Part shown: in pieces, positions 22,814 to 63,988 of the stretch
Layout of the letters: every line of letters begins with the position of its first letter
How positions within the stretch are numbered: position 1 is the first letter of the stretch
Origin: Hormiphora californensis
Lineage: Eukaryota; Animalia; Ctenophora
Assembly: GCA_020137815.1 (NCBI GenBank)
Contig: CM035351.1
Location: 9,362,001 to 9,426,000 of the forward strand
Length of the DNA stretch: 64,000 nt
Direction of reading: 5' to 3'
Program-made: the position numbers and the translations under genes
Notes under the pieces: model-generated
The model's database searches: none
What the model saw: the letters and a program-made list of their open reading frames with translations, nothing else
What the model was told of the DNA's origin: nothing

Positions 22814-22948
22814 GTTACATTTTCTGAACACTTCTACTGCACAAAGTTATCGGTGTCAGTGTATTGTGAAGATTTGATATTGTGAATAAAAAAGTTTGTT
22901 AAATTTGCATTGTGACAATAAAAAAGATAAAACAATAAATTACAATAA

Positions 22949-25900: not shown

Positions 25901-26020
25901 GGGCAGGAAGGCAGTTAGAGAGGACACATCGGCCCCACAATCTAACATTATGTGGACATTGTTTAACTTGATGACCACACAACAGGAGTGGTCCAGGTTA
26001 CCATAGTTGGCTATCTTCAT
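22949..26020 (-). CDS. INTS9: Integrator complex subunit 9 (multi-exon, apparent frameshifts)
   Basis: IMLDCG.D.S.L..FLPL, GGNVLIPC.STGVLLDL, SPVADAALA...Y.EWL, Y.PELPF.H..L and PCIVFAGHPSLR. Confidence 0.9.
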
Positions 26021-26154
26021 ACTATTGAGGGAGGGAGAGGTTGGGGAAATGGAGTCATGAATTAGAAAACTGCACAGTAAATGGTAGTTTAAAAACTGTA
26101 AAATGTGTAGGTAATTCAGTATTTACAAAATGTAACAAATTTATAACAAAGTTA

Positions 26155-31702: not shown

Positions 31703-32534
31703 CTACTGATCAAGGAATTGTGCTGTCCTCCAATCATACAGCCTGCTCTCTCTATAGAACCCCCCGCTAGTGGTTGGGACAGTGCACACATGGGTGGGGG
31801 TCACAGCACCCTGATCTATAGTCAGGTGCCCCTTGTGACTGGTCATGTCTGTATCCACATAACCAGGACAACACGAGTTGATAATCACCCCACTACCCTC
31901 CATCTCTCTAGCCAGGGCCACCGTGTGGGCGTTAAGGAACGTTTTAGAGGTCGAGTAGGCGCTGTCCTTAGCAAACAGGGAGTAGTCATCATTCTCAACA
32001 GCTGTAATGTATTCCCTGTATATCTCCATCACACCCTCCTCTGTGAGACCAGGATCTGTTAGTCGGGCTCTAATTGGATTAGCAGGGTCTTTAAATGTGT
32101 AGTTTAGTTGCCCAGCCATGGACGCTACCTGACACACTCTACCACCCTTCTTTACCAGAGGTAGGAGGGCCCTGGTAACTTTGATTGTTGCTATGAGGTT
32201 GGTTGCCATGGTAACAGTAGATTTCTCAATGAGGGGAGCATGTACTAGCATTCTTGTATGCTATACCAGCATTATTACACAGCACATCGATCTCTCCCCC
32301 GTATTTCTCTTTAATCACCCCCACAAACGCCCCAATACTGTCCTCACTACAGATATCAAGCTGTTCGAATACAGGAGATAGACCCTCTGATTTGAGGGCC
32401 TCCACAGCCGCCTTTCCCCGGGTCTCATCTCGTGCTGTCAGGATGACTGTACCACCTAGCTTCTTACATAGCGCTCTGACAATACCAAACCCAACACCCT
32501 TGTTACCTCCAGTTACTACCGCTACCGTTGTCAT
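31703..32534 (-). CDS. CBR1: Carbonyl reductase (SDR, CBR1-like), copy A, with a frameshift near 32240
   Basis: VTGGNKGVG, NNAGI, YSTSK and CCPGYVDTDM motifs; split across two ORFs. Confidence 0.85.
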
Positions 32535-32778
32535 GGCTAGGAAGGTGGGGAGGGGTGAGCAGTTGTCATGGATATAGGGAACTATATAATATGGCTACGG
32601 GTGGAAGAGGTGTGGACCGTGGAGAGAGGGAGAGAGAATGGAGAAGGTTTGGGATAGTAAAACGCGATAGATAAAACATGCTTTACACAGACCTTTGTAC
32701 AATCAATATAAAATATCCCCCTCTAAAAAATGTAAACCTCGATTAAAAGTCACCTCCCCCAACTAAGTCTGCACACCT

Positions 32779-33398
32779 TTACAATTGTCCTATAACGACA
32801 GCAGGTAGTATAGTGCCTGCTGGGACTGTTTCTCTGTCCTCTGATCTTGGTGGGAGTGAGAGGAGAATGTTGGCACTTCTCATGCTGAGTAGTCGGCTGC
32901 TACATTGCCCTCCTGTCAGCTCCACCTCACCGTCACCACTATATACTGAAAGTGAGGGAATTAGTGTGAGTGATTTGGTGTTACATTGGTGTTGGGGAGA
33001 TCTAGTAGGGCGTAGACTAACAAATCTAACAAGTCATAGTAGGAGTGCAAGTGATCAAATCAAACAGCTGTATTTACTATTTACCTGCCCGGATATATTC
33101 AGGTCTAGGATCAAGACGTCGTGTTGTGGGTAGGGGTACATTGATGATACTAGGATTATACTTCCTCCCCTCCCAGGTGTGTAGTGAGGGAAGGACAAAG
33201 AGTTTGTATGTTACCATGGCACTGACTGGGTTACCGGGCAACCCAAAGAACAGACATGATGGTGATGTTGGGTCCCTTGGTATAGTGGCAAATGTTGTTG
33301 GCTTCCCAGGTTTCATGAATACTCTTCCGAAGTGGATCTTTCCATTTAGACTCAAAATAGAGTTCTTTACGTGGTCTGTCTCACCCATTGATACTCCA
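32779..33398 (-). pseudogene. GPHN: Duplicated last two exons of gephyrin (no 5' part)
   Basis: GGVSMGETD..K, HFGRVFMKPGKPTTF and FGLPGNPVSAMV; only satellite lies upstream. Confidence 0.75.
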
Positions 33399-33484
33399 CC
33401 TGTACACAACTCAGGTAACCATTAGTGACCACTACAAGTAACACCTAGTTACAACTGCTAACAACTAGTAACCACTAGTTAGTT

Positions 33485-34291
33485 AGGAGGGTCAAAGTGG
33501 GAAAGTTTCTTAGAGATTAGGAGGGTCAAAGTGGGAAAGTTTCTTAGAGATAAGGAGGGTCAAAGTGGGAAAGTTTCTTAGAGATAAGGAGGTTCAAAGT
33601 GGGAAAGTTTCGTAGAGATTAGGAGAGTCAAAGTGGGAAAATTTCTTAGAGATTAGGAGGGTCAAAGTGGGAAAGTTTCTTAGAGATAAGGAGGGTCAAA
33701 GTGGGAAAGTTTCTTAGAGATAAGGAGGGTCAAAGTGGGAAAGTTTCTTAGAGATAAGGAGGGTCAAAGTGGGAAAGTTTCTTAGAGATAAGGAGGGTCA
33801 AAGTGGGAAAGTTTCTTAGAGATAAGGAGGGTCAAAGTGGGAAAGTTTCTTAGAGATAAGGAGGGTCAAAGTGGGAAAGTTTCTTAGAGATAAGGAGGGT
33901 CAAGTGGGAAAGTTTCTTAGAGATAAGGAGTGTCAAAGTGGGAAAGTTTCTTAGAGATAAGGAGGGTCAAAGTGGGAAAGTTTCTTAGAGATAAGGAGGG
34001 TCAAAGTGGGAAAGTTTCTTAGAGATAAGGAGGGTCAAAGTGGGAAAGTTTCTTAGAGATAAGGAGGGTCAAAGTGGGAAAGTTTCTTAGAGATAAGGAG
34101 GGTCAAAGTGGGAAAGTTTCTTAGAGATAAGGAGGGTCAAAGTGGGAAAGTTTCTTAGAGATAAGGAGGGTCAAGTGGGAAAGTTTCTTAGAGATAAGGA
34201 GTGTCAAAGTGGGAAAGTTTCTTAGAGATAAGGAGGATCAAAGTGGGAAAGTTTCTTAGAGATAAGGAGGGTCAAAGTGGGAAAGTTTCTT
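33485..34291. repeat. 34-bp satellite array (copy A)
   Basis: Unit gataaggagggtcaaagtgggaaagtttcttaga. Confidence 0.97.
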
Positions 34292-35490
34292 TCTTCTTGT
34301 TTGGGGAAGGTGCAATGAGGGGGTGGAGCAGGCTAGTTTAGTCAGCTCATGTAGAACACCCCAGTTTGGTTCAGTGTGGCCATGTTGGGTCGCCAACCTG
34401 GCTACACTCTCACATAACCACACCAGCCCCGATACACACTCTGTAGTGGACACTGAAAGAAGGGAGGGGGCGTTACTAGGATACTTACTAGATGTCTTCT
34501 GAACATCTCTTCATTCAGAGAAACAAATTGGAACGAGAACCTAGAGAAACATTGGCCCAGTACCTAGTTGGTTGATGTGGCGATTGAATGTCTGCCAGAA
34601 AGACAGCTCAGGTTGGTTAGATGACACACATTTTACAAGGGTACCCCAACACGCCTCCTCGCAGCACCCCAGAGAGAGCGGGGAGGTATATTCAGGGATC
34701 TGTAGTAGGGAACTTGTCTTCCTGTACCCTGTTAGAGATACCTGGACACCTTGTGTCACCAGCACCTCCATAAGAGTGTTCACTGTCCCACTAAATAGTT
34801 CCAGATGGGTAGATAGGAACCTGAAAATGAACTGGGTGTATTATAGGTTCGGTTTGTTATGTTCTAACCCTCTTTTACATTTATATAAGAGGGCGGAGCG
34901 CACGGAAAAAGGGTCGGGGAAGGCAAAGGTTCGATTTGGAGTTTTGGTAATGATTTGTTGGATTCTACAATCTAAAAAGGCTGAATAGCAAGTCCTCGTA
35001 AGATCACCTGTGCGCTATGCGAAGTCGTGTGACAGCGAACAGTAGTTTGCAGTGGGTATAGAAATCACTCCCTCCACAGTCCCCTGGTATTGAAGTTAAT
35101 AGAGTCTGTAAGGGCGAGGTAAACATCTCAACTCGTGTGGGCCGTAACCGACACAGATAGGAACAGAAGGTCCGGATATGAGTGAACTGTTCAGGAGTAT
35201 TGCAGGAGGTGGGGTCCCATAGTACACGCAGGACACAATCCTCCAGCCATTGCACCTCTTCAGGGGTGTCCTCTAACTGAAAAAAACAGGGACATGTTAG
35301 CTATTAGGAATAAACGAAGGGCATGTACATGTGTGTCTCATGAGTTATTTCATTGATTGCAGAAGAGAATTACAGGACCCAAAGAACCGATGTTACCATG
35401 TGCAGAACGTTTAACAGTTTAGATGAGAGAACACAGGGATTTCATGCTGCATGATCATTGATCAGCTTAAAACAATTTGAATAATACAAT

Positions 35491-35934
35491 TTACACTCCG
35501 GTTACAGTTGACTCTCTTCTGGAAGTAGTGGGTTTGTTTCTTCGTGTTACAAAAGCGGCCTCAACAGCGAAGGAGACAAGGGTCAATATCACTAGTAGTA
35601 CAACTACAGCTGCCCCAATCTTTAGGTAGTGGAGAAGATATCCGATGAGTTGTTCCGTTGCGTCGTCAGAAAGGAGGGGTGTAGGAGTGGTTGGGGGGAT
35701 GGCGGTACAGTTGAATGTCACCACAACCCTTTGGAAGTCACCAGAATGTCCAGGGAAGGAAAGGATCAAGGGGTTGTCCTCACATGTTTCCACTTGAGTG
35801 CAGTGCATATATCGGAACAACCGGAGAATGGTGTCGTTGGCATTAAGGTTGTAGACTTGGGGGCACTTGATGAAGGGAGTCGCTGTAGCAGTAGTCATCA
35901 CTCCGGCAAGGAAGATAAAAGCAAAGCAAATCAT
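35491..35934 (-). CDS. Uncharacterised 147-aa type I membrane protein, copy B
   Basis: Paralog or allele of 29622-30065, intact. Confidence 0.75.
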   Translation of the reverse strand: MICFAFIFLAGVMTTATATPFIKCPQVYNLNANDTILRLFRYMHCTQVETCEDNPLILSFPGHSGDFQRVVVTFNCTAIPPTTPTPLLSDDATEQLIGYLLHYLKIGAAVVVLLVILTLVSFAVEAAFVTRRNKPTTSRRESTVTGV

Positions 35935-35996
35935 TTTGGTTTAATAAAAATAAAAGTTCTCTGTGATTTATAGTTTCTGAGTTGGTGAGATTTGAG

Positions 35997-36620
35997 AGGC
36001 CTAGCTTCGTATCACCGATTAGGGACTATCAGATCACATAACAAAGCAGGCCTAGTTTCATATCACCGATTAGGGACTATCAGGTCACATGACAAAGCAG
36101 GCCTAGTTTCGTATCACCGATTATGGACTATCAGGTCACATAACAAAGCAGGCCTAGTTTCGTATCACCGATTAGGGACTATCAGGTCACATAACAAAGC
36201 AGGCCTAGTTTCGTATCACCGATTAGGGACTATCAGAATTCAGGTCACATGACAAAGCAGGCCTAGTTTCGTATCACCGATTAGGGACTATCAGATCACA
36301 TAACAAAGCAGGCCTAGTTTCGTATCACCGATTAGGGACTATCAGATCACATAACAAAGCAGGCCTAGTTTCGTATCACCGATTAGGGAGTTGAGAAATA
36401 ACAAAGCAGGCCTAGTTTCGTATCACCGATTAGGGACTATCAGATCACATGACAAAGCAGGCCTAGTTTCGTATCACCGATTAGGGACTATCAGATCACA
36501 TAACAAAGCAGGCCTAGTTTCGTATCACCGATTAGGGACTATCAGATCACATAACAAAGCAGGTCTAGTTTTATATCACTGATAGTGTCAGATCACAATA
36601 TGGAAAAGCGGGCCTAGTTT
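35997..36620. repeat. 51-bp minisatellite (~12 copies), copy B
   Basis: Same unit as 30128-30548. Confidence 0.95.
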
Positions 36621-37045
36621 CTTAATCAATTTTAATTTCCTAAATAATCATTATTACCGCTTTGAGGATGAATGGATGGTTGAACAAGACATCGTTACGT
36701 GGTAATCCATATTCGGGGAGTGGGCCAATGTCATACTCGCATTCTCTCATGTAGAGCTATAACAGGGCGATGGATTACCATTGGGAGAGAGGGTTTATAG
36801 TGAAACAGTGAATTACATTAATTAGAGATTAACAATTTTATCCAAAGAACTAAAACATGAATAATGAACTCTAAAACATATAAACACAATTAAAATACAC
36901 ATGTATGTGACTACGTATAACATCTCTTTAAGAGATAACTATGGCAGTGCGTTGTATTGTTGGAGAGGGTCAGGAACTGCACACCACACTAGCACAGACT
37001 ACATAGAGGGTCAGGCACTCCACACTAGCCAATATCTCTTCCTTC

Positions 37046-37876
37046 CTACTGATCAAGGAATTGTGCTGTCCTCCAATCATACAGCCTGCTCTCTCTATAG
37101 AACCCCCCGCTAGTGGTAGGGACAGTACACACATGGGTGGGGGTCACAGCACCCTCATCTATAGTGAGGTGCCCCTTGTGACTGGTCATGTCAGTATCCA
37201 CGTAACCAGGACAACACGAGTTGATAATCACCCCACTACCCTCCATCTCTCTAGCCAGGGCCACCGTGTGGGCGTTAAGGAAGGTTTTAGAGGTCGAGTA
37301 GGCACTATCCTTAGCAAACAGGGAGTAGTCATCATTCTCAACAGCTGTAATGTATTCCCTGTATATCTCCATCAGTCCTTCCTCTGTCAGACCAGGATCT
37401 GTTAGCCGGGCTCTAATTGGATTAGCAGGGTCTTTAAATGTGTAGTTTAGTTGACCAGCCATGGACGCTACTTGACACACTCTACCACCCTTCTTTACCA
37501 GAGGTAGGAGGGCCCTGGTAACTTTGATTGTTGCTATGAGGTTGGTTGCCATAGTAACAGTAGATTTCTCAATGAGGGGGGCTGTACTAGCATTCTTGTA
37601 TGCTATACCAGCATTATTGCACAACACATCGATCTCTCCCCCGTATTTCTCCTTTATCACCCCCACAAACGCCCCAATACTCTCCTCACTGCAGATATCC
37701 AGTTGTTCAAATACAGGAGATAGACCCTCTGATTTGAGGGCCTCCACAGCTGCCTTTCCCCGGGTCTCATCTCGTGCTGCCAGGATGACTGTACCACCTA
37801 GCTTCTTACATAGCGCCCTGACAATCCCAAACCCAACACCCTTGTTACCTCCCGTTACTACCGCTACCGTTGTCAT
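37046..37876 (-). CDS. CBR1: Carbonyl reductase (SDR, CBR1-like), intact and intronless; start MTTVAVV
   Basis: Full set of SDR motifs: TGxxxGxG, NNAG and YxxSK. Confidence 0.9.
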   Translation of the reverse strand: MTTVAVVTGGNKGVGFGIVRALCKKLGGTVILAARDETRGKAAVEALKSEGLSPVFEQLDICSEESIGAFVGVIKEKYGGEIDVLCNNAGIAYKNASTAPLIEKSTVTMATNLIATIKVTRALLPLVKKGGRVCQVASMAGQLNYTFKDPANPIRARLTDPGLTEEGLMEIYREYITAVENDDYSLFAKDSAYSTSKTFLNAHTVALAREMEGSGVIINSCCPGYVDTDMTSHKGHLTIDEGAVTPTHVCTVPTTSGGFYRESRLYDWRTAQFLDQ

Positions 37877-38099
37877 GGCTAGGAAGGTGGAGAGGTGTGA
37901 GAGGTTGTCATGGTTATAGGGAACTATGGCTAGTGGTAGAAGAAGGGTGAACCGCAGTATAGAAAGAGAATGGGGAAGGTTTGGGATAGTAAAACGCGAT
38001 AGATAAAACATGCTTTACACAGACCTTTGTACAAACAGTATAAAATATCCCCCTCTAAAAAATGTAAACCTCGATTAAAAGTCACCTCCCCCAACTAAG

Positions 38100-38172
38100 T
38101 TGGTTACGAAATAATAACCCCTTGCCTCGCGACTTTCGCGCGCTGGCGAGGGAGGGGTAACTTCGTTACCAA
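38100..38172. mobile_element. 73-bp TTGG...CCAA micro-MITE with 9-bp TSD; empty site in the duplicate copy
   Basis: TSD ccaactaag at 38091-38099 and 38173-38181; a single ccaactaag at 32759-32767. Confidence 0.9.
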
Positions 38173-38192
38173 CCAACTAAGTCTGTACACCT

Positions 38193-41172
38193 TTACAATT
38201 GTCCTATAACGATCGCAGGTAGTAGAGTGCCTGCTGGGACTGTCTCTCTGTCCTCTGATCTAGGTGGGAGAGAGAGGAGGATGTTGGCACTTCTCATGCT
38301 GAGTAATCGGCTGCTACATTGCCCTCCTGTCAGCTCCACCTCACCATTACCACTATACACTGGGAGTTGGGGAATCAGTGTGAGTGATGAGGTGTTACAT
38401 TATTGTCGAGAGATTAGTGCATGTAGGATGCAGACTAACAAATCTAACAAGCCACAACAAAAGTCACCAAACAGATCTGTGATATTTACCTGCCCGGATG
38501 TATTCAGGTCTAGGATCAAGACGTCGTGTTGATGGTAGGGGTAGGTTGATGATGCTCGGGTTATACTGTCTCCCCTCCCAGGTATGTAGTGATGGAAGGA
38601 CAAATAGTTTGTATGTTACCATGGCACTGACTGGATTACCAGGCAACCCAAAGAACAGGCATGATGGTGATGTTGGGTCCCTTGGTATAGTGCCGAATGT
38701 TGTTGGCTTCCCAGGTTTCATGAATACTCTTCCGAAGTGGATCGTTCCATTTAGGCTCAAAATAGAGTTCTTTACGTGATCTGTCTCACCCATTGATACT
38801 CCACCTGCAAACAACTCAGGTAACCATTAGTGATCACTACAAGTAACACCTAGTTACAACTGGTAACAACTAGTAACCACTAGTTAGTTAGGAGGGTCAA
38901 AGTGGGAAAGTTTCTTAGAGATAAGGAGGGTCAAAGTGGGAAAATTTCTTAGAGATTAGGAGAGTCAAAGTGGGAAAATTTCTTAGAGATTAGGAGGGTC
39001 AAAGTGGGAAAGTTTCTTAGAGATAAGATGGGTCATAGTGAGAAGGTTTCTTAGAGATTAGGAGGGTCAAAGTGGGAGAGTTTCTTAGAGATAAGATGGG
39101 TCATAGTGAGAACGTTTCTTAGAGATTAGGTGGGTCAAAGTGGGAAAGTTTCTAAGAGATTAGGAGTGTCAAAGTTAGAAAGTTTCTTAGAGATTAGGAG
39201 GTTCAAAGTGGGAAAGTTTCTTAGAGATAAGGAGGGTCAAAGTGGAAAAGTTTCTTAGAGATAAGGAGGATCAAAGTGGAAAGTTTCTTAGAGATAAGGA
39301 GGGTCAAAGTGGGAAAGTTTCTTAGAGATAAGGAGGGTCAAAGTGGGAAAGTTTCTTAGAGATAATGAGGGTCAAAGTGGGAAAGTTTCTCAGAGATAAG
39401 GAGGGTCAAAGTGGGAAAATTTCTTAGAGATTAGGAGGGTCAAAGTAGTAAAGTTTCTTAGAGATAAGATGGGTCATAGTGAGAAGGTTTCTTAGAGATT
39501 AGGAGGGTCAAAGTGGGAGAGTTTCTTAGAGATAAGATGGGTCATAGTGAGAACGTTTCTTAGAGATTAGGTGGGTCAAAGTGGGAAAGTTTCTAAGAGA
39601 TTAGGAGTGTCAAAGTTAGAAAGTTTCTTAGAGATTAGGAGGTTCAAAGTGGGAAAGTTTCTTAGAGATAAGGAGGGTCAAAGTGGAAAAGTTTCTTAGA
39701 GATAAGGAGGATCAAAGTGGAAAGTTTCTTAGAGATAAGGAGGGTCAAAGTGGGAAAGTTTCTTAGAGATAAGGAGGGTCAAAGTGGGAAAGTTTCTTAG
39801 AGATAATGAGGGTCAAAGTGGGAAAGTTTCTCAGAGATAAGGAGGGTCAAAGTGGGAAAGTTTCTTAGAGATAAAGAGGGTCAAAGTGGGAAAGTTTCTT
39901 AGAGATAAGGAGGGTCAAAGTGGGAAAGTTTCTTAGAGATAAGGAGGGTCAAAGTGGAAAATTTTCTTAGATATTAGGAGCGTCAAAGTGGGAAAGTTTC
40001 TTAGAGATAAGGAGGGTCAAAGTGGGAAAGTTTCTTAGATATTAGGAGCGTCAAAGTGGGAAAGTTTCATAGAGATAAGGAGGGTCAAAGTGGGAAAGTT
40101 TCTTAGAGATAAGGAGGGTCAAAGTGGAAAAGTTTCTTAGAGATAAGGAGGTTCAAAGTGGGAAAGTTTCTTAGAGATAAGGAGGGTCAAAGTGGGAAAG
40201 TTTCTTAGATATTAGGAGGGTCAAAGTGGGAAAGTTTCTTAGAGATAAGGAGGGTCAAAGTGGGAAAGTTTCTTAGAGATAAGGAGGATCAAAGTGGGAA
40301 AGTTTCTTAGAGATAAGGAGGGTCAAAGTGGAAAAGTTTCTTAGAGATAAGGAGGTTCAAAGTGGAAAAGTTTCTTAGAGATAAGGAGTGTCAAAGTGGG
40401 AAAGTTTCTTAGAGATAAAGAGGGTCAAAGTGGGAAAGTTTCTTAGAGATAAGGAGGGTCGAAGTGGGAAAGTTTCTTAGAGATAAGGAGGGTCAAAGTG
40501 GGAAAGTTTCTTAGATATTAGGAGCGTCAAAGTGGGAAAGTTTCTTAGAGATAAGGAGGGTCAAAGTGGGAAAGTTTCTTAGATATTAGGAGCGTCAAAG
40601 AGGGAAAGTTTCTTAGAGATAATGAGGGTCAAAGTGGGAAAGTTTCTTAGAGATAAGGAGGGTCAAAGTGGGAAAGTTTCTTAGAGATAAGGAGGGTCAA
40701 AGTGGGAAATTTCTTAGAGATAAGGAGGGTCAAAGTGGAAAATTTTCTTAGATATTAGGAGCGTCAAAGTGGGAAAGTTTCTTAGAGATAAGGAGGGTCA
40801 AAGTGGGAAAGTTTCTTAGATATTAAGCCAAAAACTAATTGAAATTAGTTGGCGGGAAAGGTGACCCACTTACACCTTTTGCTACTGCCGGGTATCACCG
40901 CGAACTCTCATTCTATCCCTCGGTATCTCAATCTCTCATTTTTCGAGGGTAACTTATTCCTGTTCGTTCTATCCCTCTCTCTCCTCCCTGTCTCTGTCTC
41001 TGTCTCTCTGTCTCTCTCTGTCTCTCTCTGTCTCTCTCTGTCTCTCTCTCTCTCTCTCTCCCCTACTAAAATATAGTTCGACGCGACGCGACGCGCGATC
41101 GATGAACGATCGATAACGATCGTTTATCGATCGTTCATCGATCGCGCGTCGCGTCGAACTATATTTTAGTAG

Positions 41173-41220
<48 letters not shown>

Positions 41221-43365
41221 TCTCACTCTATCACACTCTCTTTCACTACGTCTTATTCCATTATATTCACCTCTTATATCCCTGATCCCGGCAGCAGGCA
41301 AAGGTGTAAGTGGGTCACCTTTCCCGCCAACTAATTTCAATTAGTTTTTGGCTTAATTTAGGTCCCTTTTTGGTTTCTAATCGCAGCATGACATTATTTC
41401 ATGATTTAATATTGTCGAAATGATGCGTTATATGAGAAACAAGACGAATTTCTGTGAAAATCGTATTTTAGACGTCATAATGACGTCATTTGACGTAATT
41501 AGTGACGTCGTAACGACGTAATTGCATCACGATATATTTTTAATCAATACCTCAAAGGAGCTTGTAAAGTTTCATTGACCACAGTGGTCAAGAAAGGGAG
41601 TTTTTGCTCGAAAAACGTTCAATTTGCTGAATTTTTCGTCAAATTTATGACTTCCGACGCGATTTAAGGGCTCAAGATGATAAGCTACGAAAATTCGCAA
41701 TTCGCAATATAGTATCCGAAGTTCAGACGATTTTTTTGCGGTAACGATTTTTCGTCAAATTAAAATTGGAAACACGGTCCTTTCAGGGTGCTAAGGCGTT
41801 TGAAAAAAAGTAGTCGGTCTCCGCGCATGACTTCATTCGTGACTCGTTGCGCGTGTCACAGGTAGATGGAGAGTCCCGCCACCCCAGATGGGTACATGCA
41901 CGAGATAAGGAGGTCAAAGATTTAAGGAGGGTGTGTTCTAAATAGTGGGAAAGTTTCTTCAGGATAAGGAGGTGTCAAGTGGAGTTCTGAAATTCCTTAA
42001 TTCAGGAGTTTTTAGAAAGGTCAAGTGGAGGAAAGGGTTCTTAGATTAGAAGTGAAGCGGTAAAAGGGGAGTTTCTTAGTAAAGCAAAAATGAAATTAGT
42101 TGAAGGCGCTAGCGGGAACCAATTCTTACTCTTATTCAATCAATTTGAGGGTACTTATTTGTTGTTCTATTCCCTCCCTGTCTTCTGCCTGCTTATCGTC
42201 TCTCTCCTCTCTTCCCCTATAAAATATTCGAGAAGGCGTGGGATAACGTGAAACGACTTTAATGTTCATCATCCGTCGCGTCAACTACTTTAGTAGGTCT
42301 CTCTCTCTCTCCTCTCTTCTCTTCTCCCTCCTCCCTCTCCTCTCTTTCACTATCGTCGGATCCGCAAACAGCTTATATCCCGTTGGTCGGAGGCAGCTGT
42401 TGTGAAGTGGGGTCACCTTCCCCAACAAATTAATTATTTTTGTTGTTCTTAAATTAGGCTTTTGGTTTAGCAGCGACGTTATTCAAGACGTTCAATATTG
42501 TTTGAATTGGCGTTATAATGAGAACAGACGAATTCGGGGAAACGTATTTAGGACGTCATAAGTAGATTTTAGTAATAAGTGACGTGCAAGTGAACGATTC
42601 GTAAGAATGATCAGATATTTTTAGATAAAGGTCAAAGGAGTGTAAAGTTTCTAGAAAAGGTAAAGAAAGTTTTGTGAAAGAGTTCAATTTGCGAATTTTC
42701 GAGCAAATTAGTGACTCGAAACGCGTTTTAAGTATCAAGGGTAAGTCGAAAATTCGAATAGTAGTTCGAAAGTAGCGATTTGCAGTAACGATGTCAAAGA
42801 GAAATTGGATACAGTCTCCAGTGGTGTCTAGAGAAAAGAGTGTCGGTTCGAGTTCAAATGGAGTCAAATGTGAAGTCGTAATTAGAGCGTTTCACATGGA
42901 AAGTATAGGCCACAGAGGGTAATGACGAGAAATGTCGTCGAATGGGCGAAGAGTCGTAGAGTACTGGTTGTCTTAAGCCAGGAGGTAAGTCTATACAGAG
43001 ATGAGGTCTAAGCCGTGAATTAAGATAGGTCTGGCAAAGTGGACCCATACATTTTCTCGAGGGGTAAGTGGGCACGAAATTCTAGAAAGGGTCAAAGGAA
43101 AATGCTCTTGAATTAGGAGGTCAAAGGAGAAAGTTCTGTGAAAGAAAAGGAAGGGGAAGAGAAAGAGCGAGAAAGGGAGCAGATTGAAAAGGGAAGGAGA
43201 AGAGGACATACAGAGAGGGATACCGAGGCGAGATACACGGAGAGCAGACGAGCGAGAGGTAGAAGTAGAGGAGATGAATATTACGAGAGATAGAGCCAGT
43301 AGCTAATGATTCGTCTCTTCTCTCTATCTCTCTCGTCTCTCCTCTCTCTCTTCCTACTATTCATC

Positions 43366-43450
<85 letters not shown>

Positions 43451-46400
43451 TCTCTATCACACTCTCTTTCACTGTCTTATTCCATTATATTCACCATTTA
43501 TATCCCTGATCCCGGCAGCAGGCAAAGGTGTAAGTGGGTCACCTTTCCCGCCAACTAATTTCAATTAGTTTTTGGCTTAATTTAGGTCCCTTTTTGGTTT
43601 CTAATCGCAGCATGACATTATTTCATGATGTAATATTGTCGAAATGATGCGTTATATGAGAAACGAGACGAATTTCTGTGAAAATCGTATTTTAGACGTC
43701 ATAATGACGTCATTTGACGTAATTAGTGACGTCGTAACGACGTAATTGCATCACGATATATTTTTAATCAATACCCCAAAGGAGCTTGTAAAGTTTCATT
43801 GGCCACAGTGGTCAGGAAAAGGAGTTTTTGCTCGAAAAACGTTCAATTTGCTGAATTTTTCGTCAAATTTTTGACTTCCGACGCGATTTAAGGGCTCAAA
43901 ATGATAAGCTACGAAAATTCGCTATATAGTATCTGAAAGTTCAGACGATTTGCCGGTAACGAATTTTCGTCAAATCAGAAATCGGAAAACGTCTTTAGGG
44001 TGCTAGAGGCGTTTGAAAAAATGTGGTCGGTCTCGCGCAATGACGTCACTCGTGACGTCATTGCGCGCGTCATAGGTAAGATGGAGAGTCGCCACCCAGA
44101 TGGGTACATGCACGAGACAATTGTCTGTCGAATGCCGCTTGGTTTAAGGTCGTACGATCTCTGGTTCGTCTCAAACTGGGACCAAACGGAAGGTAACAAA
44201 GCGTCTATCCATGTATATATATATGTATCAACCTAGTTATCCCCACACTGAATTTTCTGTTTTGGGGGTGGTGTTATAACTTTTGAACAAAAAGAGCTAG
44301 CCACTTGAAATTTTTACCATCGATAGAGATCTACAAGAAGCTTCTAAGTACAAAATTTCAGCTTCCTAGCTCTTCCGGTTCGGGAGTTATGGCATGTCAA
44401 AAAGTGCCAAAATGGGCTAAAAGTATGAAATAACTATATATACGCTGTGAGCAAGCGGGCCGTTTTTGGGGGAAATTTTTTTCGGGAGATGGATGGGGTC
44501 ACCTTTGCGCTTGCCAGCGCAGTGATGTATATATCAACCTAGTTATCCCCACACTGAATTTTCTGTTTTGGGGGTGGTGTTATAACTTTTGAACAAAAAG
44601 AGCTAGCCACTTGAAATTTTTACCATCGATAGAGGTCTACAAGAAGCTTCTAAGTACAAAATTTCAGCTTCCTAGCTCTTCCGGTTCGGGAGTTATGGCA
44701 TGTCAAAAAGTGCCAAAATGGGCTAAAAGTATGAAATAACTATATATACGCTGTGAGCAAGCGGGCCGTTTTTGGGGGAAATTTTTTTCGGGGGATGGAT
44801 GGGGTCACCTTTGCGCTTGCCAGCGCAGTGATTAGGAGCGTCAAAGTGGGAAAGTTTCATAGAGATAAGGAGGGTCAAAGTGGGAAAGTTTCTTAGATAT
44901 TAGGAGCGTCAAAGTGGAAAAGTTTCTTAGAGATAAGGAGGTTCAAAGTGGGAAAGTTTCTTAGAGATAAGGAGGGTCAAAGTGGGAAAGTTTCTTAGAG
45001 ATAAGGAGGATCAAAGTGGGAAAGTTTCTTAGAGATAAGGAGGGTCAAAGTGGAAAAGTTTCTTAGAGATAAGGAGGTTCAAAGTGGGAAAGTTTCCTAG
45101 AGATAAGGAGGGTCAAAGTGGGACAGTTTCTTAGAGATAAGGAGGGTCAAAGTGGGAAAGTTTCTCAGAGATAAGGAGGGTCAAAGTGGAAAAGTTTCTT
45201 AGAGATAAGGAGGTTCAAAGTGGGAAAGTTTCTTAGAGATAAGGAAGGTCAAAGTGGAAAAGTTTCTTAGAGATAAGGAGGGTCAAAGTGGGAAAGTTTC
45301 TTAGAGATAAGGAGGGTCAAAGTGGAAAAGTTTCTTAGAGATAAGGAGGGTCAAAGTGGGAAAGTTGGGTAGACATAAGGAGGGTCAAAGTGGGAAAGTT
45401 TCTTAGAGATAAGGAAGATCAAAGTGGGTAAGTTTCTTAGAGATAAGGAGGGTCAAAGTGGGAAAGTTTCTTAGAGATAAGGAGGTTCAAAGTGGGAAAG
45501 TTTCTTAGAGATAAGGAGGGTCAAAGTGGGAAAGTTTCTTAGAGATAAGGAGGGTCAAAGTGGGAAAGTTTCTTAGAGATAAGGAGGGTCAAAGTGGAAA
45601 AGTTTCTTAGAGATAAGGAGGTTCAAAGTGGGAAAGTTTCTTAGAGATAAGGAGGGTCAAAGTGGGAAAGTTTCTTAGAGATAAGGAGCGTCAAAGTGGG
45701 AAAGTTTCTTTGAGATAAGGAGGGTCAAAGTGGGAAATTTTCTTAGAGATAAGGAGGGTCAAAGTGGGAAAGTTTCTTAGAGATAAGGAGGGTCAAAGTG
45801 GGAAAGTTTCTTAGATATTAGGAGCGTCAAAGTGGGAAAGTTTCTTAGAGATAAGGAGGGTCAAAGTGGGAAAGTTTCTTAGATATTAGGAGGGTCAAAG
45901 TGGGAAAGTTTCTTAGAGATAAGGAGGGTCAAAGTGGGAAAGTTTCTTAGAGATAAGGAGGGTCAAAGTGGGAAAGTTTCTTTGAGATAAGAGGATCAAA
46001 GTGGGAAAGTTTCTTAGAGATAAGGAGGGTCAAAGTGGGAAAGTTTCTTAGAGATAAGGAGGGTCAAAGTGGGAAAGTTTCTTAGAGATAAGGAGGGTCA
46101 AAGTGGGAAAGTTTATTAGAGATAAGGAGGGTCAAAGTGGGAAAGTTTCTTAGAGATAAGGAGTAGTTATCACACTACCCACCAGTTGATATGATGACAT
46201 CTGCAACAAGACTAGCACCATCTAGCTCATGCTCTGTATCAGCAGGTGTATCAGGTAGGTGTTCCACGTGTACCACATTGTATCCATCCTCAGCCAGCAG
46301 GTTGGATAATGCACACGTGTTACTATCACGTACCTATATAGGACTGAATAAATAAATGAATTGCCTGAGGGGATTTTGAAACCCCAGGAAATAATTATTA

Positions 46401-48494: not shown

Positions 48495-51400
48495 TCACCA
48501 GGAGACCTCTCCGAATCGTGCCACTAGGTTATCCTGGGTCTGCAGATCCTTCTGTACCTTCATTCTCATGTAGAAGATGGGGCAATCCCTGCTGGTACAT
48601 AGAACCTCCTCGTGGAGACTACCCTGGCATCTTTGGCACTGGGTCCACAACCTGCAGGATAGTTGAATTGTTCATACGTGTAACACACAATGGTATACGG
48701 GTTTGGAGTTGCAATAACAGTCCGTAGACAAAGATAGGATAACAAACTCTTGTTTCCTTACTTGTTGAACTTTTCCTCCAGCGAGTAAAGTGTAGATATC
48801 TCTTTCTGATAGATATCGGATGCCTTTGACTTGCAGTTATCACACACCGCGGATCCTAAACAACAGGGGATCAGTGGTCCAAAATACAATTGATTTCCAA
48901 TGTTGAGTGATAATATTACCTTCTCGTTTCAGAACAGCTTTGCACCCAACACACGTTGCTTTCTTCTTGGTAAATGCAGATAGAGCCCCTACAGAGCTGT
49001 GCACTACACTACACACTCTGGTGTGTTCACCTGGGGAAGGAGGGGACTGTTAATTGGGGGGGGGGGGGTTAGAATACCAACAAAATAATGAGTGTGTTGG
49101 AATAATTCTGAATAGAAGTTTACATCAGACTCAAATAGCATGACTGTGTGTGTGTTTAATCTAACAGGGCCCTACACGGGTAATTAGCATCATTCCTCTA
49201 AGTGCATCAGGAGCCCCCTTCTGTTACCCCCACCACCCTCAAAATAGAGAGGCATCATTTACAAGTGCAGTTTATATATTGACATGCACCAGTACACATT
49301 ATATATTTCCCTGCAATAAACCCTTACTCACTGCCTTTGTAGTTCTAGAAGTATTTAGGAAGGTGCCCTAACCACACATTACTTGATTAGTTCACGCCCT
49401 AGTAACCATGGTAACCGCCTTGTTTTAATATTTATTATACAACCCTTGATATTATCATCCCCATATTGACAGTGTGTTGTGTATTACCTTTACAGTGTGT
49501 TGTGTATTACCTTTAAGTAGAGTGCTCTCCGCCTTCTCCCCCAGTATCGGCTCAAAGATTCTCAACAGGGGCTTACTAAGCTGGTTGCTCAGATAGTACA
49601 CAGTGTCAATAGGCAGGTTGTTCTCTAGCACATACAGAGGATCCTCCGACTTCATGTAGGTCGGATCCTTCTTAGCTCCAGTAACAATGACATAGGGGAC
49701 CCGATCACCTAGTTTAGGAGCACTCCCCGGATCTCTCTTCTTCATTTTATCAGCCAAGATGGTATGGCATTGTTTGTTAGCGTAGTCATCCCCTGTCTTA
49801 GTGAGCTCCTTGGTGATAATCAGTTGGGAGATGTCAATCCTGTTGCAGAGCAGGTCGCTAATTACTGATTTGGTGTAATTAACTGCAGCAGTTGGGTTCC
49901 TCTCAATCAGCAGCTTCTCCAGACAAGTACTGATGAGATCAGAGGCAAGGCGGCAGTTGTCCCTCCTGACTGTTTCTATTCCTTTACAGTCCATCTTATC
50001 GTGTTTATCAGGGGACGAGGAGAAGTAGAGGCCTGCATATCTCTTCTTATTGATCAACAGATAAGGGAAGTATACCTTCTCAAACTCTAACTTTACGGGA
50101 CTAGGGAACTTCTCAGAGATGGATTTAGCTGCCAGCTCACCCATCTTCATTGCCTCTGCCACTGAGTCAACATTGAACTTTACCATGACTGAATCAGTAT
50201 CACCGTATATAACTTTAGCATCAGATTGGAATCCATTCTCTTTGTTGTAGTTAGACTCAACCAGCTGCTTAGTTCGCTCTATCATCTCTCTCCCATAGGC
50301 AGTCACTGATTTGGAGATCTGGAGGCAGGGTAGTTTCCCTACACTAGCACCAGTGAACCCATACACAGAGTTACAAGAGATCTTCAGAGCCAACTGACGT
50401 CCATCCAGGACCTGTTTCTTGAACGGATCAGTCTCCTGGGCTAGCTCTCTCTTAGCCTTCTTCCTTGCCCCTAGCAGGTCACTTAGAATCTCCGGAAGGA
50501 CTCCATGACGTGTCTCTGACTTTACAAAGTAGTCTCCAGAGGGGGTCTGGACATACTGGGCAGGATCCAGCTTGTTCCTCTCCTCTGGGGTCAGGAGGGT
50601 AGAGTAACAAAGGTTGTGAGCCTGCATGATGGAGGGGTAGAGGGATGCGAAATCTAGTGTTGCTATGGGGGTGTCATAGTAACCCCTGATAGGCTCAATA
50701 ACAGTTGCTCCTTCATACATATCAGCAGCAGTGTTGGACTGGTATACGGGTATTATGAGATCTTGCTCCTTACACTTCCTGAGTAGCTGTGAGAACACCT
50801 TGACCTGTTGACCCCGTGTCATTAGATAGGAGATGGGAACACCCGTTACACGAGCCATCTCCATATAGTTGATAAGGCACATCAGCTTGTTCAGTAGTCG
50901 GAGTGGCAGGAGAGCATCCTTCATACAGTACACAGCAAGCCTCCTTCTAGTTACCTCGTTACCGTTCTGTAGATCTGTAATGATGCTGTGGTGAACATCT
51001 TCCTTCTGTTCTAACAGGAAGTGGTAGGAAACTGCATTCAGGGAGTAGGATCTGAGTTTGTAGTTACGGAGCAGAATAGGGAGGAGATCAAATTGTACCC
51101 GCCCCTCAATGTTCATCACTTTGTTAGATCTCTTACCATAAGCTTTACTCTCAAATATCCGCTCCTTCACCATAGTTCTCTCTTTGGGTATCCTACCCAG
51201 GTATGGGAATGTCCCAACCTTAAGGGCCTCAGCCCTCTCAATCAGATATGGTACATCAAAGTTGTTGATGTTATAACCAGTTAGGATATCAGGATCTACC
51301 TCCCTAACAAAGTCAGACCAGGCTCTCAGCAACTCTTTCTCTGTTTCGAAACTCCTCACATCAGCACCCACAATGGGAGAACAGGTGTTTAGTACGAACA

Positions 51401-52484
51401 CGTTCCTGATAAAGGGCTCTGTGCTCCCCTGGTACATGACCATGTTAGCTATCTGGATCACGGGGTCTTTAGAGGGCTCCGGAAAGATCCCCTTCCTACC
51501 CGCACACTCTATATCAAAACTAAGGATCCTGGCCGGGGCTATTTTACCCCACTCTCCCTCGGTCGATAGGGACACTAGATCTCTCCACCCACAGGTGACC
51601 TCGTACTGACAGGCCGATATTTTCTTCTCGTTCCGCACCATGTTATACTTCTTAGCTGGTAGTTCTATCCAGTTACAACCCACCACGTCTGTATCTATCA
51701 TGAAGCGGTTCTCAAAGTCTACATTTGCCTCGAAACTAGTGTAGGAGCGGTCCACGAACTGGCCAGTTGTGAACCCCCTATCTAGAATTCTCTTAGCAGG
51801 AGCAATATGTTGTGGGAGAGCGGTGGTAATTTTCAGGTAGGGTAGTTTTTTGTTACCATGATAACCATAAATACTTTCCTTAGTGACAATTTCAACGGAT
51901 AGCACTATTTTATCCACCTGTTCCCTTTTCTTTGCCTGATCCGCCTTCAACACAACATTCAGATCCTCCATGAACTTGCCACAGTGTTCCTCCTTGAACC
52001 CAGGGGGACAGGGCACGTAGAAGTAGGGACAGTACCCGTGTACTGAGCAACACACACTGTTACCATTCTGTGTCACTCCAAACATTCTGATAACAGGGGT
52101 GAAGGCGTCCTGTACCGGTGAGAGGAGGGGGTGTGCTGGGGCCAGGTAGTAGTCAAGATCAAGTTGCTGGAACACTAGTTTCTCTACTGCTGTATTCAGA
52201 CGGGGTGCGTCAGGTCTACACAGCTGATCAGTGGGGGTGGTAACAGTATCTGACCCCATTGAGTGAGATGTGGAAACAGAGCTGAAGGAGTCTCTTGATG
52301 CCCCATCGTCACCCCCATCCTGCATGTTGGACAGGGTCCAAGATGCTGGCTCCACGTGATTGGTTGTCTTGGCAACCCAGCTGTCCTCCATCGTATCAGC
52401 TGCCCAATCATCTTCTTGCTCAGTTATTTTTAGCTTTTTGGCACCATCCGTCAAGCTTTCTCCAGCAGATCGTTTGTCCGCCAT
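48495..52484 (-). CDS. POLD1: DNA polymerase delta catalytic subunit (exon 1 52484-49511, then ~49010-48920, 48855-48762, 48651-48495)
   Basis: [37 protein letters not shown], and C-terminal CysA/CysB ([23 protein letters not shown]). Confidence 0.98.
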
Positions 52485-53106
52485 ACCGTTTTACCGGGAG
52501 TGAGCTAAAATGGGAGGGTGTGTCATCATTAGATAGATAGAGAGAGGGAGAAAGGTATATAGAGATAGAGATAGTGAGAGAGAGAATTGAGAAACTTCGG
52601 GAAACTTGTTACATGACTGAAATGGAGAAAAAGAAAAAGAATGAGATAGAAAGGACACCTGTTGCGACAAGAAGATCCTTTCCAATTAGCACTGCTCCGA
52701 TATTCTCCTTTTTGTGGTTCAGAGGCTCGAGTGTGTGTGCCATTGTGAATTATGAATACTTAGCACCTACTACACATGTGCCCCAACAACCTCACTGAAA
52801 TTAATACTGTTCTACTCAATGCCTCCCCCGTTATTAAATATAGTAAGGGACGCCATCTGTTGTATCACGTTGCGAATATATTTTTTGCAGTTCCTATAGT
52901 TAGTACGTAGTAGGGGGGGGGACGACAGCTGTAACAATACCGCTATAATACCACTATGGTGATATTTTTGGCACTTCAACCAAATCCAAGGTTTTTGTGA
53001 CATCGAAACTGTGTGGTCTCACTCTTTTTGGCCATCTCTACTTTATATTTGTACTCTTTGAATGTTCAACTCACAGCCTGTGTAGCACATTGAATTGTTT
53101 CTAGTA

Positions 53107-60200: not shown

Positions 60201-60855
60201 GATAATAAAGAAACACGTTTTACTTTTGTCAGTTATCAATATACCTGCTGACTATGTCCATTTTCTCGACATCCCATATTGAGGCATAGTCATCATCTGT
60301 ACCACCAATAAGATGGGTCTGGTCATACACCCAATCAATACTCAGCACTGTACTCATAAAGTCTAACTCCACCATTTGGTTCTGATCAGTAAACCCTATC
60401 TCTGAAAACTCTCCGACATACACCTGCGGGGAATTGTGCTAACTGTCGTATACATTGTGCAACTAAATTATACAAGTCATCAAAATGATGCTCACAATAC
60501 AACGTGTTGATAAACCTACATGTTCTCTGTCTGTATACGCAAAATGTTGCGTTTTGGGTGCACATCGCAGGTTATTCCTGAGAGATCCATGGCCCTGGAA
60601 GTTTATAGGTCGTCGGAGGGGTGTGCAATGAGTCCTATCTTTACTGACAAGACTATCCGATATTTTGTAGCTGTAGAGACCTGTAAAACACGGTGTTAAA
60701 TTCTGCACTTTTGAAAACTTTTAGAAATTAAAACGTATTCCAAACTTACATTGCTGGGTCTGGCATAACTTTATCAAGTACTTTTTCTCGTGTGATATAT
60801 CAAATGAGACCCCAACTGCCTGGTCTCTGTCGTAGGATGGGAGAGATCTGTGCAT
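57233..60855 (-). CDS. WDR59: GATOR2 subunit WDR59/Sea3 (multi-exon)
   Basis: WD40 repeats, VPFPRTNGARFC, PYGRKLVES...DVQSLAM and C-terminal RING CVVCRLPVK...CSHGGH..H...WF..CPTGCGCLC. Confidence 0.88.
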
Positions 60856-61019
60856 TTTCCTGACCTCCAAAGTCAGGAATACGTCTTATCGCATGGTTCA
60901 AAGTCTAACGGTAATCGGAAATATAAGTAAATAAGGATATAACTCGTAAATAATTAAATGGTATTTTGTGTGTAATACTAGGAGCCGCCGGGAAATCAGC
61001 CCACACGCGAACAAATCAC

Positions 61020-61097
61020 TTGGCATACGTTGCAGGCCCCTTATAATATAATATAATTGCGGGGGTGCGCGCATGAGGGGGCTGCAGCGCATTCCAA
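61020..61097. mobile_element. 78-bp TTGG...CCAA micro-MITE with 9-bp TSD
   Basis: TSD acaaatcac at 61011-61019 and 61098-61106; TIR ttggcatacgttgcag / ctgcagcgcattccaa. Confidence 0.85.
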
Positions 61098-61310
61098 ACA
61101 AATCACTTCGCCAAAAGCGAATCGCGTCGTGTGATTTTCAATTCAGTTTTTAATTTCAAAAAAACGTAACGCGCGGCAGCGATGACCGTCAAATGTTAGC
61201 GCGTTCCATAAGTTGTGGCCAAGTTTATTGATTTTTGAAGCGTTATAAAAATTTTGAACTTAATTTTGAAATTTTTGGAACGCGTTTTTTCAAAATTTTA
61301 AATTCTACAT

Positions 61311-61380
61311 TTGGCATGCGCTGCAGACCCCAAGTGCGCGCGTTTTCCACGGCTTCTTTAGGGCCTGTAGCATAGGCCAA
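61311..61380. mobile_element. 70-bp TTGG...CCAA micro-MITE with 9-bp TSD
   Basis: TSD attctacat at 61302-61310 and 61381-61389; inverted near-copy of 7902-7969. Confidence 0.88.
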
Positions 61381-61540
61381 ATTCTACATCTTCACGTCGC
61401 AACGTTGCAAGTTGTTATTATTATTATTAAATCTGTTTACAATAATTTGACAATGTCAATATTGCCCTCCTATTTGCGAGGAAAATGGAACTCTCTAGGT
61501 CTCTTTCACACTTTCTCAGCTGTCAGATCATACAAAAAAT

Positions 61541-63290
61541 AAGTTTAAGTTTAAGTTTAAGTTTACTCACAATTTATCACAAAGTCACACAATTAATATA
61601 TAACTTCGTCCCGCTCTTACACCATACACTAATAAATATAAAATGTCGATTAAAATACTGATTAGATAATGATTAAAATATATTGTAAACTGATTAAATA
61701 AGTTCAATTAATATGTCGTGATTACTGTTTAATAGCCCAACTGGTCATTCCGAAAAATCAGATACAAACACATTAATGTGCCGCACTGTATATGAGTTAC
61801 TCCAACCCTCCAGTTTCAATGCTTGTTTAACGAAGGAAGTAACCAAGCGATCCACTGGATTCGATATATCTAGGCGCATATCATATTCCCACAGTACTGA
61901 TGTATTAGCACTATCTTTATATCGGATATCTCGAACAGCAACAATCCTTGTATTTAAACAGGGTTCTTGCTTTCTAACCAGTTAGGCGTATTAAACAGGG
62001 CACATGTTATCTGCAGCGCTCACATATCATGATAATGAACTACATTAACCGTAGTATTATGCACTATGCTGCAGGGACATCACACACACACATCACCCAC
62101 ACACATGATATTGATCAAGCCTGAACAACAGGTTATTGAATCAATCGACCGTTCAACGGTACGAGGTGCCATCACTAGATTCGTGCAGTAGATCCGAAGA
62201 TCACGAATTCAATTAATATGTCGTGATTACTGTTTATTGTTAATTGAATTCGTGATCTTCGGATCTACTGCACGAATCTAGTGATGGCACCTCGTACCGT
62301 TGAACGGTCGATTGATTCAATAACCTGTTGTTCAGGCTTGATCAATATCATGTGTGTGGGTGATGTGTGTGTGTGATGTCCCTGCAGCATAGTGCATAAT
62401 ACTACGGTTAATGTAGTTCATTATCATGATATGTGAGCGCTGCAGATAACATGTGCCCTGTTTAATACGCCTAACTGGTTAGAAAGCAAGAACCCTGTTT
62501 AAATACAAGGATTGTTGCTGTTCGAGATATCCGATATAAAGATAGTGCTAATACATCAGTACTGTGGGAATATGATATGCGCCTAGATATATCGAATCCA
62601 GTGGATCGCTTGGTTACTTCCTTCGTTAAACAAGCATTGAAACTGGAGGGTTGGAGTAACTCATATACAGTGCGGCACATTAATGTGTTTGTATCTGATT
62701 TTTCGGAATGACCAGTTGGGCTATTAAACAGTAATCACGACATATTAATTGAATTCGTGATCTTCGGATCTACTGCACGAATCTAGTGATGGCACCTCGT
62801 ACCGTTGAACGGTCGATTGATTCAATAACCTGTTGTTCAGGCTTGATCAATATCATGTGTGTGGGTGATGTGTGTGTGTGATGTCCCTGCAGCATAGTGC
62901 ATAATACTACGGTTAATGTAGTTCATTATCATGATTAAATAAGTTAGTTAAAAATTCACTCCGTGGAGTGCGATTCGTACACAGTGTGTACGTCTCGGGC
63001 TGGTCAGTTATACATTTACAATTGATTAGAATATAAACCCATTACACAAGCAGTTGATCCCCAAATAAAGATTGTTCTATTACAGCTCTTACTACCTTTC
63101 TAAAGTTCGATTTTACCTGCTTGTCTTTGGAGAAAATTAGTGGAAGATGGAAGTTCATTTCATAAGAAGATATCACCCTTAGTTCCTCACGGGGCCCTTC
63201 CACATCTTTTATCGCAGAACATTCAAACAACTTGTGGAATGTTGAATCTGGGAGTTGGCCACATTCAAGACAATTGGGAACTGCAAGTTG
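61541..63290 (-). mobile_element. 5'-truncated LINE remnant: ORF2 C-terminal CCHC, 3' UTR and (TAAACT)n tail, interrupted by the 505-bp-unit insertion
   Basis: Minus-strand frame CLECGQLPDSTFHKLFEC ending at stop 63042; (aagttt)4 at ~61541-61565. Confidence 0.6.
61703..62935. mobile_element. TSD-flanked insertion made of tandem and inverted identical copies of a 505-bp non-coding unit
   Basis: 534 bp in one orientation (61703-62236) plus 696 bp in the other (62240-62935), both with period 505; flanked by tgattaaataagtt at 61691-61704 and 62932-62945. Confidence 0.8.
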
Positions 63291-63579
63291 TTACTGCCGC
63301 CGTTGTCGGATCATCCTGATTCTAGAACTTGAGCGTTTCTCCACTGTGTCCTACCAGGTCCCTTTGACCTTTCAGGACCTTAGTCTACCTGAAGTACCTT
63401 GTAAGGAGGCTAGAGGGCCGCCAATTGGGCGCCCATTGCCCAATGATTCTCCGATCAGCGGTCAGCGCTATGACCCAACGTATCTCTAGAACTTGTTGTT
63501 GAGGTGTTAGTTATTTCAAACTGTTTATCACTTGTGTACTGAGTATTGACCGTCCCATTTGTCAGCTAGAACAGGCGAA

Positions 63580-63988
63580 ATGGATGAGAACCCGTTTGCG
63601 GACCCTAACCAGGTCAACCCCTTCATGGACCCATCTGTTCAACAGGTTAATATCATTATCTTAGTTGCCAAATAGTTGCAAAATACTCAAATGTACATTA
63701 CAGAATTGTGGGGTTATATCTTGTATACTATCCCAGGTATCTGCCCAATCTACGACGGTTGGTGCAGGGCTAGAGGACGCTATGTTCTCCGAGCCTGCCA
63801 CAGTTCCTGTTGCGCCTGTTATAACCCAACCTGCTGCTATCCCAACCTACCCTGCTAGTACGGCAGCTCCCAGCTACGCCCCTCCCAGTTACCCTACCAC
63901 CGGTACAGCTGGAGGGTATGGGTCCTCTAACTCATTCAATTCGCAACCACCACGACAATACGGCAACGATGAGAACCTGAAGAAACAG
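63580..63988 (+). CDS. SCAMP: Secretory carrier membrane protein (SCAMP family), first two exons; continues beyond the window
   Basis: MDENPFADPNQVNPFMDPSVQQ (tandem NPF motifs), followed by a Pro-rich exon leading into a coiled coil. Confidence 0.8.

Follow-up and report, generated by a model that had tools for sequence, protein, structure and literature searches.

A probably twin-primed, mirrored insertion of a high-copy 505-nt repeat without a hammerhead in the comb jelly Hormiphora californensis

The stretch of Hormiphora californensis DNA analysed here, all 64,000 nt of which we call the window, represents a compact animal genome. Its pirin shares 97% identity over 252 residues with a protein of Pleurobrachia bachei, which points to a comb jelly of the Pleurobrachia type, and a single open frame of about 1,000 codons (49455-52490) encodes the catalytic subunit of DNA polymerase delta. 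A segmental duplication (28458-46163) includes two copies of a short-chain dehydrogenase along with long tandem arrays whose repeats measure 34 bp and 51 bp. Toward the end of the window, 2.9 kb between two divergently oriented genes (60700-63580) houses the insertion described below, a LINE remnant, and an element at 61067-61341 that is probably a MITE. This element has 32-nt imperfect terminal inverted repeats and a partial second copy at 7902-7970, and in both host runs few sequences are deeper than its ends. The genes to either side are a minus-strand WD40 gene, which we take to be WDR59, and a plus-strand gene that starts at 63580 and would be SCAMP.

The insertion is 1.24 kb long and contains 2.4 identical turns of one 505-nt unit, partly mirrored (Table 1). 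An inverted arm, composed of unit positions 486-505, 1-505, and 1-9, is joined to a forward arm by a short filler, and both arms are perfect matches to a tandem of the same unit. The outer end of the inverted arm lies at unit position 9 and thus overlaps the start of the forward arm by 9 nt. The two flanking copies of the target-site duplication are 100% identical. Target and template could pair over 4 nt at the right junction and over 2 nt at the left (4 with one wobble), and neither end of the insertion has a poly(A) tail. These features bear out what the original prediction had described at this locus: a 14-bp direct repeat bracketing about 1.06 inverted and 1.38 forward units that looked identical, a 9-nt arm overlap with a 3-nt filler, and junctions with 2-4 nt of microhomology and no poly(A). 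An L1-type endonuclease site is absent, and the cut site is not T-rich as in L1. No 14-mer of the unit occurs elsewhere in the 64-kb window outside the insertion, and every turn of the window copy carries minority alleles of the unit family. Among the contigs listed, none bridges a flank-to-unit junction, the inversion joint, or an empty site, so the insertion locus itself rests on the assembly.

Table 1. Features of the insertion, its target, and the predicted RNA folds (window coordinates)
Feature	Position	Strand	Remarks
Rest of probable LINE 3' UTR, with 6-bp tandem tail (61540-61565)	61540..61690	-	Assignment inferred
Target-site duplication, left copy	61691..61704	+	14 bp; direct-repeat comparison
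Inverted arm	61703..62236	-	534 nt, exact; likely internally primed cDNA
Filler joining inverted and forward arms	62237..62239	.	3 nt
Forward arm	62240..62935	+	696 nt, an exact match to 1.38 units; likely the cDNA made first; lacks poly(A)
One 505-nt unit	62240..62744	+	40.4% GC; no long frame; high-copy host family
Predicted rod domain	62458..62731	+	Nested helices, pair probability >0.7
Candidate delta (HDV)-type fold	62670..62826	+	Predicted; complete only with family-majority letters; imperfect
Delta fold, G1	62670	+	Predicted
Delta fold, P1	62670-75/62773-78	+	Predicted
Delta fold, P2	62748-57/62817-26	+	Predicted
Delta fold, P3	62758-60/62769-71	+	Predicted
Delta fold, L3	62761-68	+	Predicted
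Delta fold, G38	62779	+	Predicted
Delta fold, P4	62801-05/62809-13	+	Predicted
Delta fold, C	62814	+	Predicted
Target-site duplication, right copy	62932..62945	+	14 bp; direct-repeat comparison
LINE remnant, insertion target	62946..63290	-	ORF2 end with CCHC motif (63042-63290) and start of 3' UTR

That the insertion is a twin-primed retro-copy of a multimeric RNA is well supported. Its geometry fits the twin priming proposed originally, and the lengths of its overlap and duplication match published ones. In human L1 insertions, the available text of PMC12016303 gives a median cDNA overlap of 12 bp (quartiles 4-17) for twin priming and a median target-site duplication of 13 bp (quartiles 10-15), against 9 nt and 14 nt here. 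Because the plus-sense 3' ends of both arms face outward, toward the duplications, the template was probably the plus strand. A linear RNA, 1,221 nt or longer, would be the simplest template for both arms. On a circular template, each cDNA would have to exceed one turn, and the two arm ends would fall within 15 nt of each other on a 505-nt circle 6% of the time by chance. Thus, of the template first envisaged, with at least 2.4 exact repeats or a circle copied more than once, the multimer stands but the circle is not required, as linear RNA of at least 1.22 kb accounts for both arms.

The target of the insertion is probably the 3' UTR of the LINE remnant, and the 6-bp repeat at 61540-61565 probably forms the tail of that remnant. 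The 82-aa frame at 63042-63290 on the minus strand matches the C-termini of endonuclease and reverse transcriptase proteins, with 25 relatives at E <=0.001, two of which are full endonuclease and reverse transcriptase proteins; the remnant has multi-copy read depth. The original prediction had likewise placed the insertion in a LINE 3' UTR, which the ORF2 C-terminus match upholds, and had suggested this LINE as a possible helper family. That suggestion is not supported: the LINE is a target only and lies in the opposite sense, and because the template strand is antisense to it, the location is uninformative about the helper.

The unit was present in 20 of the 24 listed runs, which come from 13 studies, with six runs on record as RNA; contigs of 8 of the 24 were compared with the window. 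Word shares were small in X18, X19, and X20 (0.24, 0.18, and 0.16), and X19 was excluded from the evidence. In X1, the summed depth of bins within the unit (61728-62141) was 17,300-29,604, compared with 12-24 in single-copy bins, and in X5 one unit contig had a depth of 17,441, compared with 30-76 for single-locus contigs. In the contigs read from these two individuals, the unit is hundreds of times deeper than its single-copy flanks and nearly uniform, which we read as some hundreds of copies, although depth is not copy number. The unit is a host genomic repeat in both individuals and not a one-off viroid capture. It has few variable sites, with six substitution sites at >=5%, and allele shares differ between the two individuals. 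A head-to-tail unit joint is present in the X5 DNA, and two X12 contigs tile the whole unit. In X2, 114 of 859 contigs lie on the compared stretch only in part, compatible with many insertion sites, and loose-end rows numbered 118 over four runs, with two adapters among the 10 listed.

In RNA-labelled runs, unit contigs had depths of 3-13, and contigs reveal neither strand, ends, nor circle. Gaps in coverage in these runs were given no weight. The unit is likely transcribed, with carry-over of DNA from an abundant repeat also possible at such depths. One RNA run, X20, contains a 521-nt contig, longer than one unit, of a diverged relative, along with a second, more distant one. Three X2 contigs at single-locus depth share with the unit only sequence from 62732 on. 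In X2 records 8 and 9, which are diverged single-locus contigs, only the module at 62732-62811 is shared; the core of the candidate fold described below lies in it, and the sequence upstream is different. These contigs may belong to an older subfamily or come from one end of an autonomous partner. In X16, an oligo-dT RNA run, a 392-nt contig (record 8) switches strand at 61999/62186 with 4 nt of microhomology. Its mirrored arms have the same polarity as those in the window insertion but different positions, and it could represent another inverted insertion or have arisen as an artefact of the library. Pattern scans for the unit gave six matches in metagenomes, all of them chance 18-mers, and none in viral contigs or genome contigs. 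No long reading frame occurs in the unit read as a circle, no tRNA in the sequence examined, and no Pol III boxes on the plus strand.

We then considered the unit as an RNA. Folded as a circle it is 69% paired, with z of -3.1 for the plus strand and -4.7 for the minus strand (40 shuffles), and none of 100 shuffles folded as well as the linear unit. One of 10 control tiles of the window folded with a stronger z; that tile holds another inverted repeat. The unit is moderately structured, short of "packed with hairpins" as first claimed: its palindromes are individually at shuffle level, with best ungapped scores of 10-12 compared with 8-13 in 30 shuffles. An initial test of gapped self-complementarity let 156 of 300 shuffles through, being too permissive, and showed nothing. 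The cUUCGg tetraloop singled out originally turned out to be a minority allele, with position 62763 in the UUCG loop differing in about 60% of X2 depth, and it is absent from the minimum-energy fold.

The predicted rod on the plus strand is closed by an inverted pair of 21 bp, in which 62458-62479 faces 62711-62731; with one scoring 0 and with another 2 of 300 shuffles matched it. Variants in the X20 relative tend to spare the plus-strand pairs more than random placement would (p 0.003 for 13 changes, 0.031 for 8 clustered events), compared with p 0.15 for the minus-strand pairs. The 13 changes entered in this test were those listed for the main X20 block, namely 9 of its 12 substitutions and 4 of its 5 indels. 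No compensatory double change was seen in the relative, and one of its changes breaks the strongest helix of the plus-strand fold. A G-U excess on the plus strand (22 of 29, p 0.07) was left out of the evidence.

The ends of the inverted pair were also compared with those of known small elements. TRIMs have a PBS and PPT beside TG..CA ends, MITEs a duplication beside an inverted pair, and Helitrons a fixed CTRR end. Read from the sequence, no matching features lie beside 62458 or 62731. The CTAG at 62783 is missing in majority copies, and the insertion ends fall elsewhere.

No hammerhead was found on either strand, as had been reported originally. Scans for type I or minimal hammerheads with at most one core mismatch and known alleles allowed gave no matches on either strand, and the first core box was absent in any order, covarying forms included, with core variants taken from the available part of PMC4209133. 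The best hammerhead scores, 2-3, were below those of most of 60 shuffles. Rfam searches of three stretches found no ribozyme by E-value, giving only hairpin-driven miRNA matches from the inversion and chance lncRNA matches. Twister, pistol, hatchet, twister-sister, and hairpin ribozymes, searched for by Rfam and by eye, were likewise not found.

A different fold emerged from the family-majority sequence. If 62763 and 62771 carry the majority letters, a delta-type double pseudoknot becomes possible on the plus strand, with nested P1, P2, and P3 and with P2 resting on P3; P1 would have 6 bp, P2 9 of 10, and P3 3 of 3. The window copy has one P3 mispair, and it is because of its minority letters inside the fold that the original prediction missed this candidate. 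On a graded delta score with our own weights, the candidate reached 26.1 with majority letters and 16.6 in the window copy; 151 of 22,601 shuffles scored as high as 26.1 and none of 242 window tiles did, which is only modestly significant (p ~0.007 per strand). Against the published delta descriptor, as given in the available part of the PMC4870747 supplement, it has five departures, and 2,418 of 3,885 shuffles did equally well or better; the same count with P2 reaching 10 positions was attained by 76 shuffles. A tailored descriptor was matched by 37 (loose) or 1 (matched) of 167,877 shuffles. As that descriptor post-dates the candidate, we relied on the published descriptor and the graded score instead.

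Two of the departures fall at conserved positions, namely the end of L3 and a catalytic strand that is one base short. In the L3 pattern TYYHCG*Y with RN after P1, as far as the source text gives it, the first six letters and the RN fit and the last pyrimidine is mismatched. J4/2 has only a 3-nt C-R-A in place of CNRA, and the canonical 4-nt register would seat U62813 where, according to the available text of PMC10879173, delta ribozymes have their essential catalytic C. Departures at the top of P1, the P2 mismatch, and the long J1/2 are of kinds described as common in R2 ribozymes in the accessible part of PMC3774820. P3 and L3 of the candidate can also zip into a plain hairpin, and the 87 nt with the candidate core are the most diverged part of the X20 contig. 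On the minus strand, the same helices score 25.2; there the catalytic strand is canonical, but P1.1 is missing and P2 is poor. This result cautions that a helix enclosing two hairpins can mimic a delta fold. The minus-strand parse spans 62252-62457; within the inverted arm, its G1 corresponds to 61999, beside the X16 strand switch, possibly by chance. Because several ribozyme families were tried, we treat the delta-type candidate as a lead only, and cleavage by the predicted fold in majority copies seems doubtful to us.

From a single insertion examined, and from the family to which it belongs, we lean toward a retrozyme-like mobile repeat that lacks a hammerhead and has spread via a borrowed reverse transcriptase, a reading that we hold with modest confidence. 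To this extent the original proposal of a retrozyme-like family is plausible, given the abundance of the unit, its head-to-tail joints, its occurrence in RNA-labelled runs, and the spared rod, but it faces an ordinary satellite as its main rival. Under that rival, the units would be homogenised at the DNA level and a read-through transcript of an array would have been retro-copied once, with incidental structure and no RNA life cycle. A satellite would be expected to have many copies with few variant sites, to show even depth, and to contain head-to-tail joints; rare alleles can be common to its neighbouring units, and the differing allele shares of the two individuals, the strongly folding control tile, and the want of a validated ribozyme agree with it. 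A satellite does not, however, lead one to expect that variation in a diverged relative would spare a plus-strand rod, that the unit would turn up repeatedly in RNA-labelled runs, or that a delta-like score would lie within the top 1%, and the roughly one hundred loose-end rows on a 630-nt stretch, some of them adapters, suggest many junctions. We consider the satellite a real but lesser possibility. One can also picture the first animal retrozyme run by a delta ribozyme in place of a hammerhead, in which a variant fold whose catalytic strand is shortened would cut a circle-forming 505-nt comb-jelly RNA at 62670, the rod would hide that fold once the circle is closed, and mirrored multimers would arise by twin priming; this model strikes us as unlikely.

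The insertion could also be the product of DNA alone. Tandem arrays can shed DNA circles, and a circular or rolling copy of an array might have been captured at a staggered break and inverted by fold-back synthesis, with the missing poly(A), the microhomology at both ends, and the filler all suiting end-joining. However, the 9-nt arm overlap is a signature of twin priming, and fold-back synthesis joins at one template position, whereas here 486 is joined to 1 through the filler, so we find such an event improbable. Very improbable, in our view, is an endogenised infectious viroid-like circular RNA of comb jellies: the unit is non-coding and rod-like, occurs in marine metatranscriptomes, and has weak delta-like scores on both strands, but it exists as hundreds of near-identical DNA copies in both individuals, has no match in viral contigs, and has low RNA depth. 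Least probable of all is an assembly or amplification chimera at the locus, where no listed contig bridges the junctions, since this would neither give a perfect 14-bp flank duplication at both ends nor retain minority alleles in every turn.

For the retrozyme-like repeat that we favour, we propose the following sequence of events. Tandem copies would be transcribed into plus-strand multimers, and the endonuclease of a non-LTR element would make a 14-nt staggered cut in the old LINE 3' UTR. One 3' end would pair over 4 nt with the RNA and be copied for 696 nt, the other would pair 9 nt inside that end point and be copied for 534 nt, and both cDNA ends would then be joined; we are confident that paired priming, copying, and joining took place in very much this way. 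It is somewhat probable that the family inserts so routinely rather than having done so once. Only tentatively do we suggest that monomers may be excised and closed into circles, most likely via the delta-type fold in majority copies. The P3 mispair in the window copy would then leave multimers uncut, and multimers left uncut would provide the long linear template that twin priming needs.

Animal retrozymes have been sought via their hammerheads, so a family that moves alike without one would expose a blind spot, here in an animal lineage that is among the first to have diverged. The insertion documents cleanly how a repeat of this kind integrates, by twin priming on a multimer with microhomology in place of a tail, a step that has mostly been assumed so far. 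If the delta-type fold does cleave, it would link the ribozyme of hepatitis delta-like agents, R2, and LINE ends to a small non-coding genomic circle, and would widen the known range of the catalytic strand. If the family is a satellite, the insertion is still a rare documented case of retro-copying of a satellite multimer.

In the accessible text of PMC7229834 and bioRxiv 10.64898/2026.07.22.740005, what defines a retrozyme is that every unit has a type I hammerhead, so the unit described here is not a member by definition, although it probably behaves like one. Animal non-LTR retrozymes are further characterised by many dispersed dimers to multimers, expression as linear and circular monomers, and sequence kinship to Penelope-like terminal repeats. 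As described in the available parts of these studies (Cervera and de la Pena 2020, PMC7229834; Li et al.), animal non-LTR retrozymes share with the unit a non-coding tandem organisation, a GC content below 45%, multiple copies without LTR features, a reported size range (51-972 bp) that includes 505 nt, and likely RNA-mediated movement by a borrowed reverse transcriptase. They differ in having a type I hammerhead, whereas the circle and the cleavage of the unit are predicted only. The literature searched, largely without subscription papers and in part as excerpts, describes no ctenophore retrozyme and no delta-type retrozyme. Delta-type ribozymes are known, from the accessible text of PMC6765202, PMC7761336, PMC11331408, and PMC3414825, at the 5' ends of R2, other LINEs, and SIDEs. 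The R2 SIDEs and other delta-headed non-LTR elements, as far as PMC3414825 and PMC3774820 are available, resemble the unit in being non-autonomous, about 500 nt long, and possibly delta-folded. The candidate's 6-bp P1, long J1/2, and P2 mismatch would be within the flexibility of R2, and its J4/2 and L3 end would depart from it. SIDEs are also single, linear, site-specific, and start at the ribozyme, whereas the unit is tandem and inserted at permuted ends. The Schistosoma W-elements, which are satellite-like transcribed repeats of a few hundred bases with dispersed copies, one having a presumed duplication, resemble the unit, itself likely transcribed and possibly dispersed; unlike the unit, four W families have hammerhead-like sequences, and the accessible portion of PMC8490949 describes no mirrored twin-primed multimers among them. 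From the twin-primed L1 insertions and processed pseudogenes in the available text of PMC12016303, finally, the window insertion differs in having no poly(A), no L1-type cut site, and a non-coding repeat multimer as its template, but it resembles them in its 14-bp duplication, its 5' inversion, and its 9-nt overlap.
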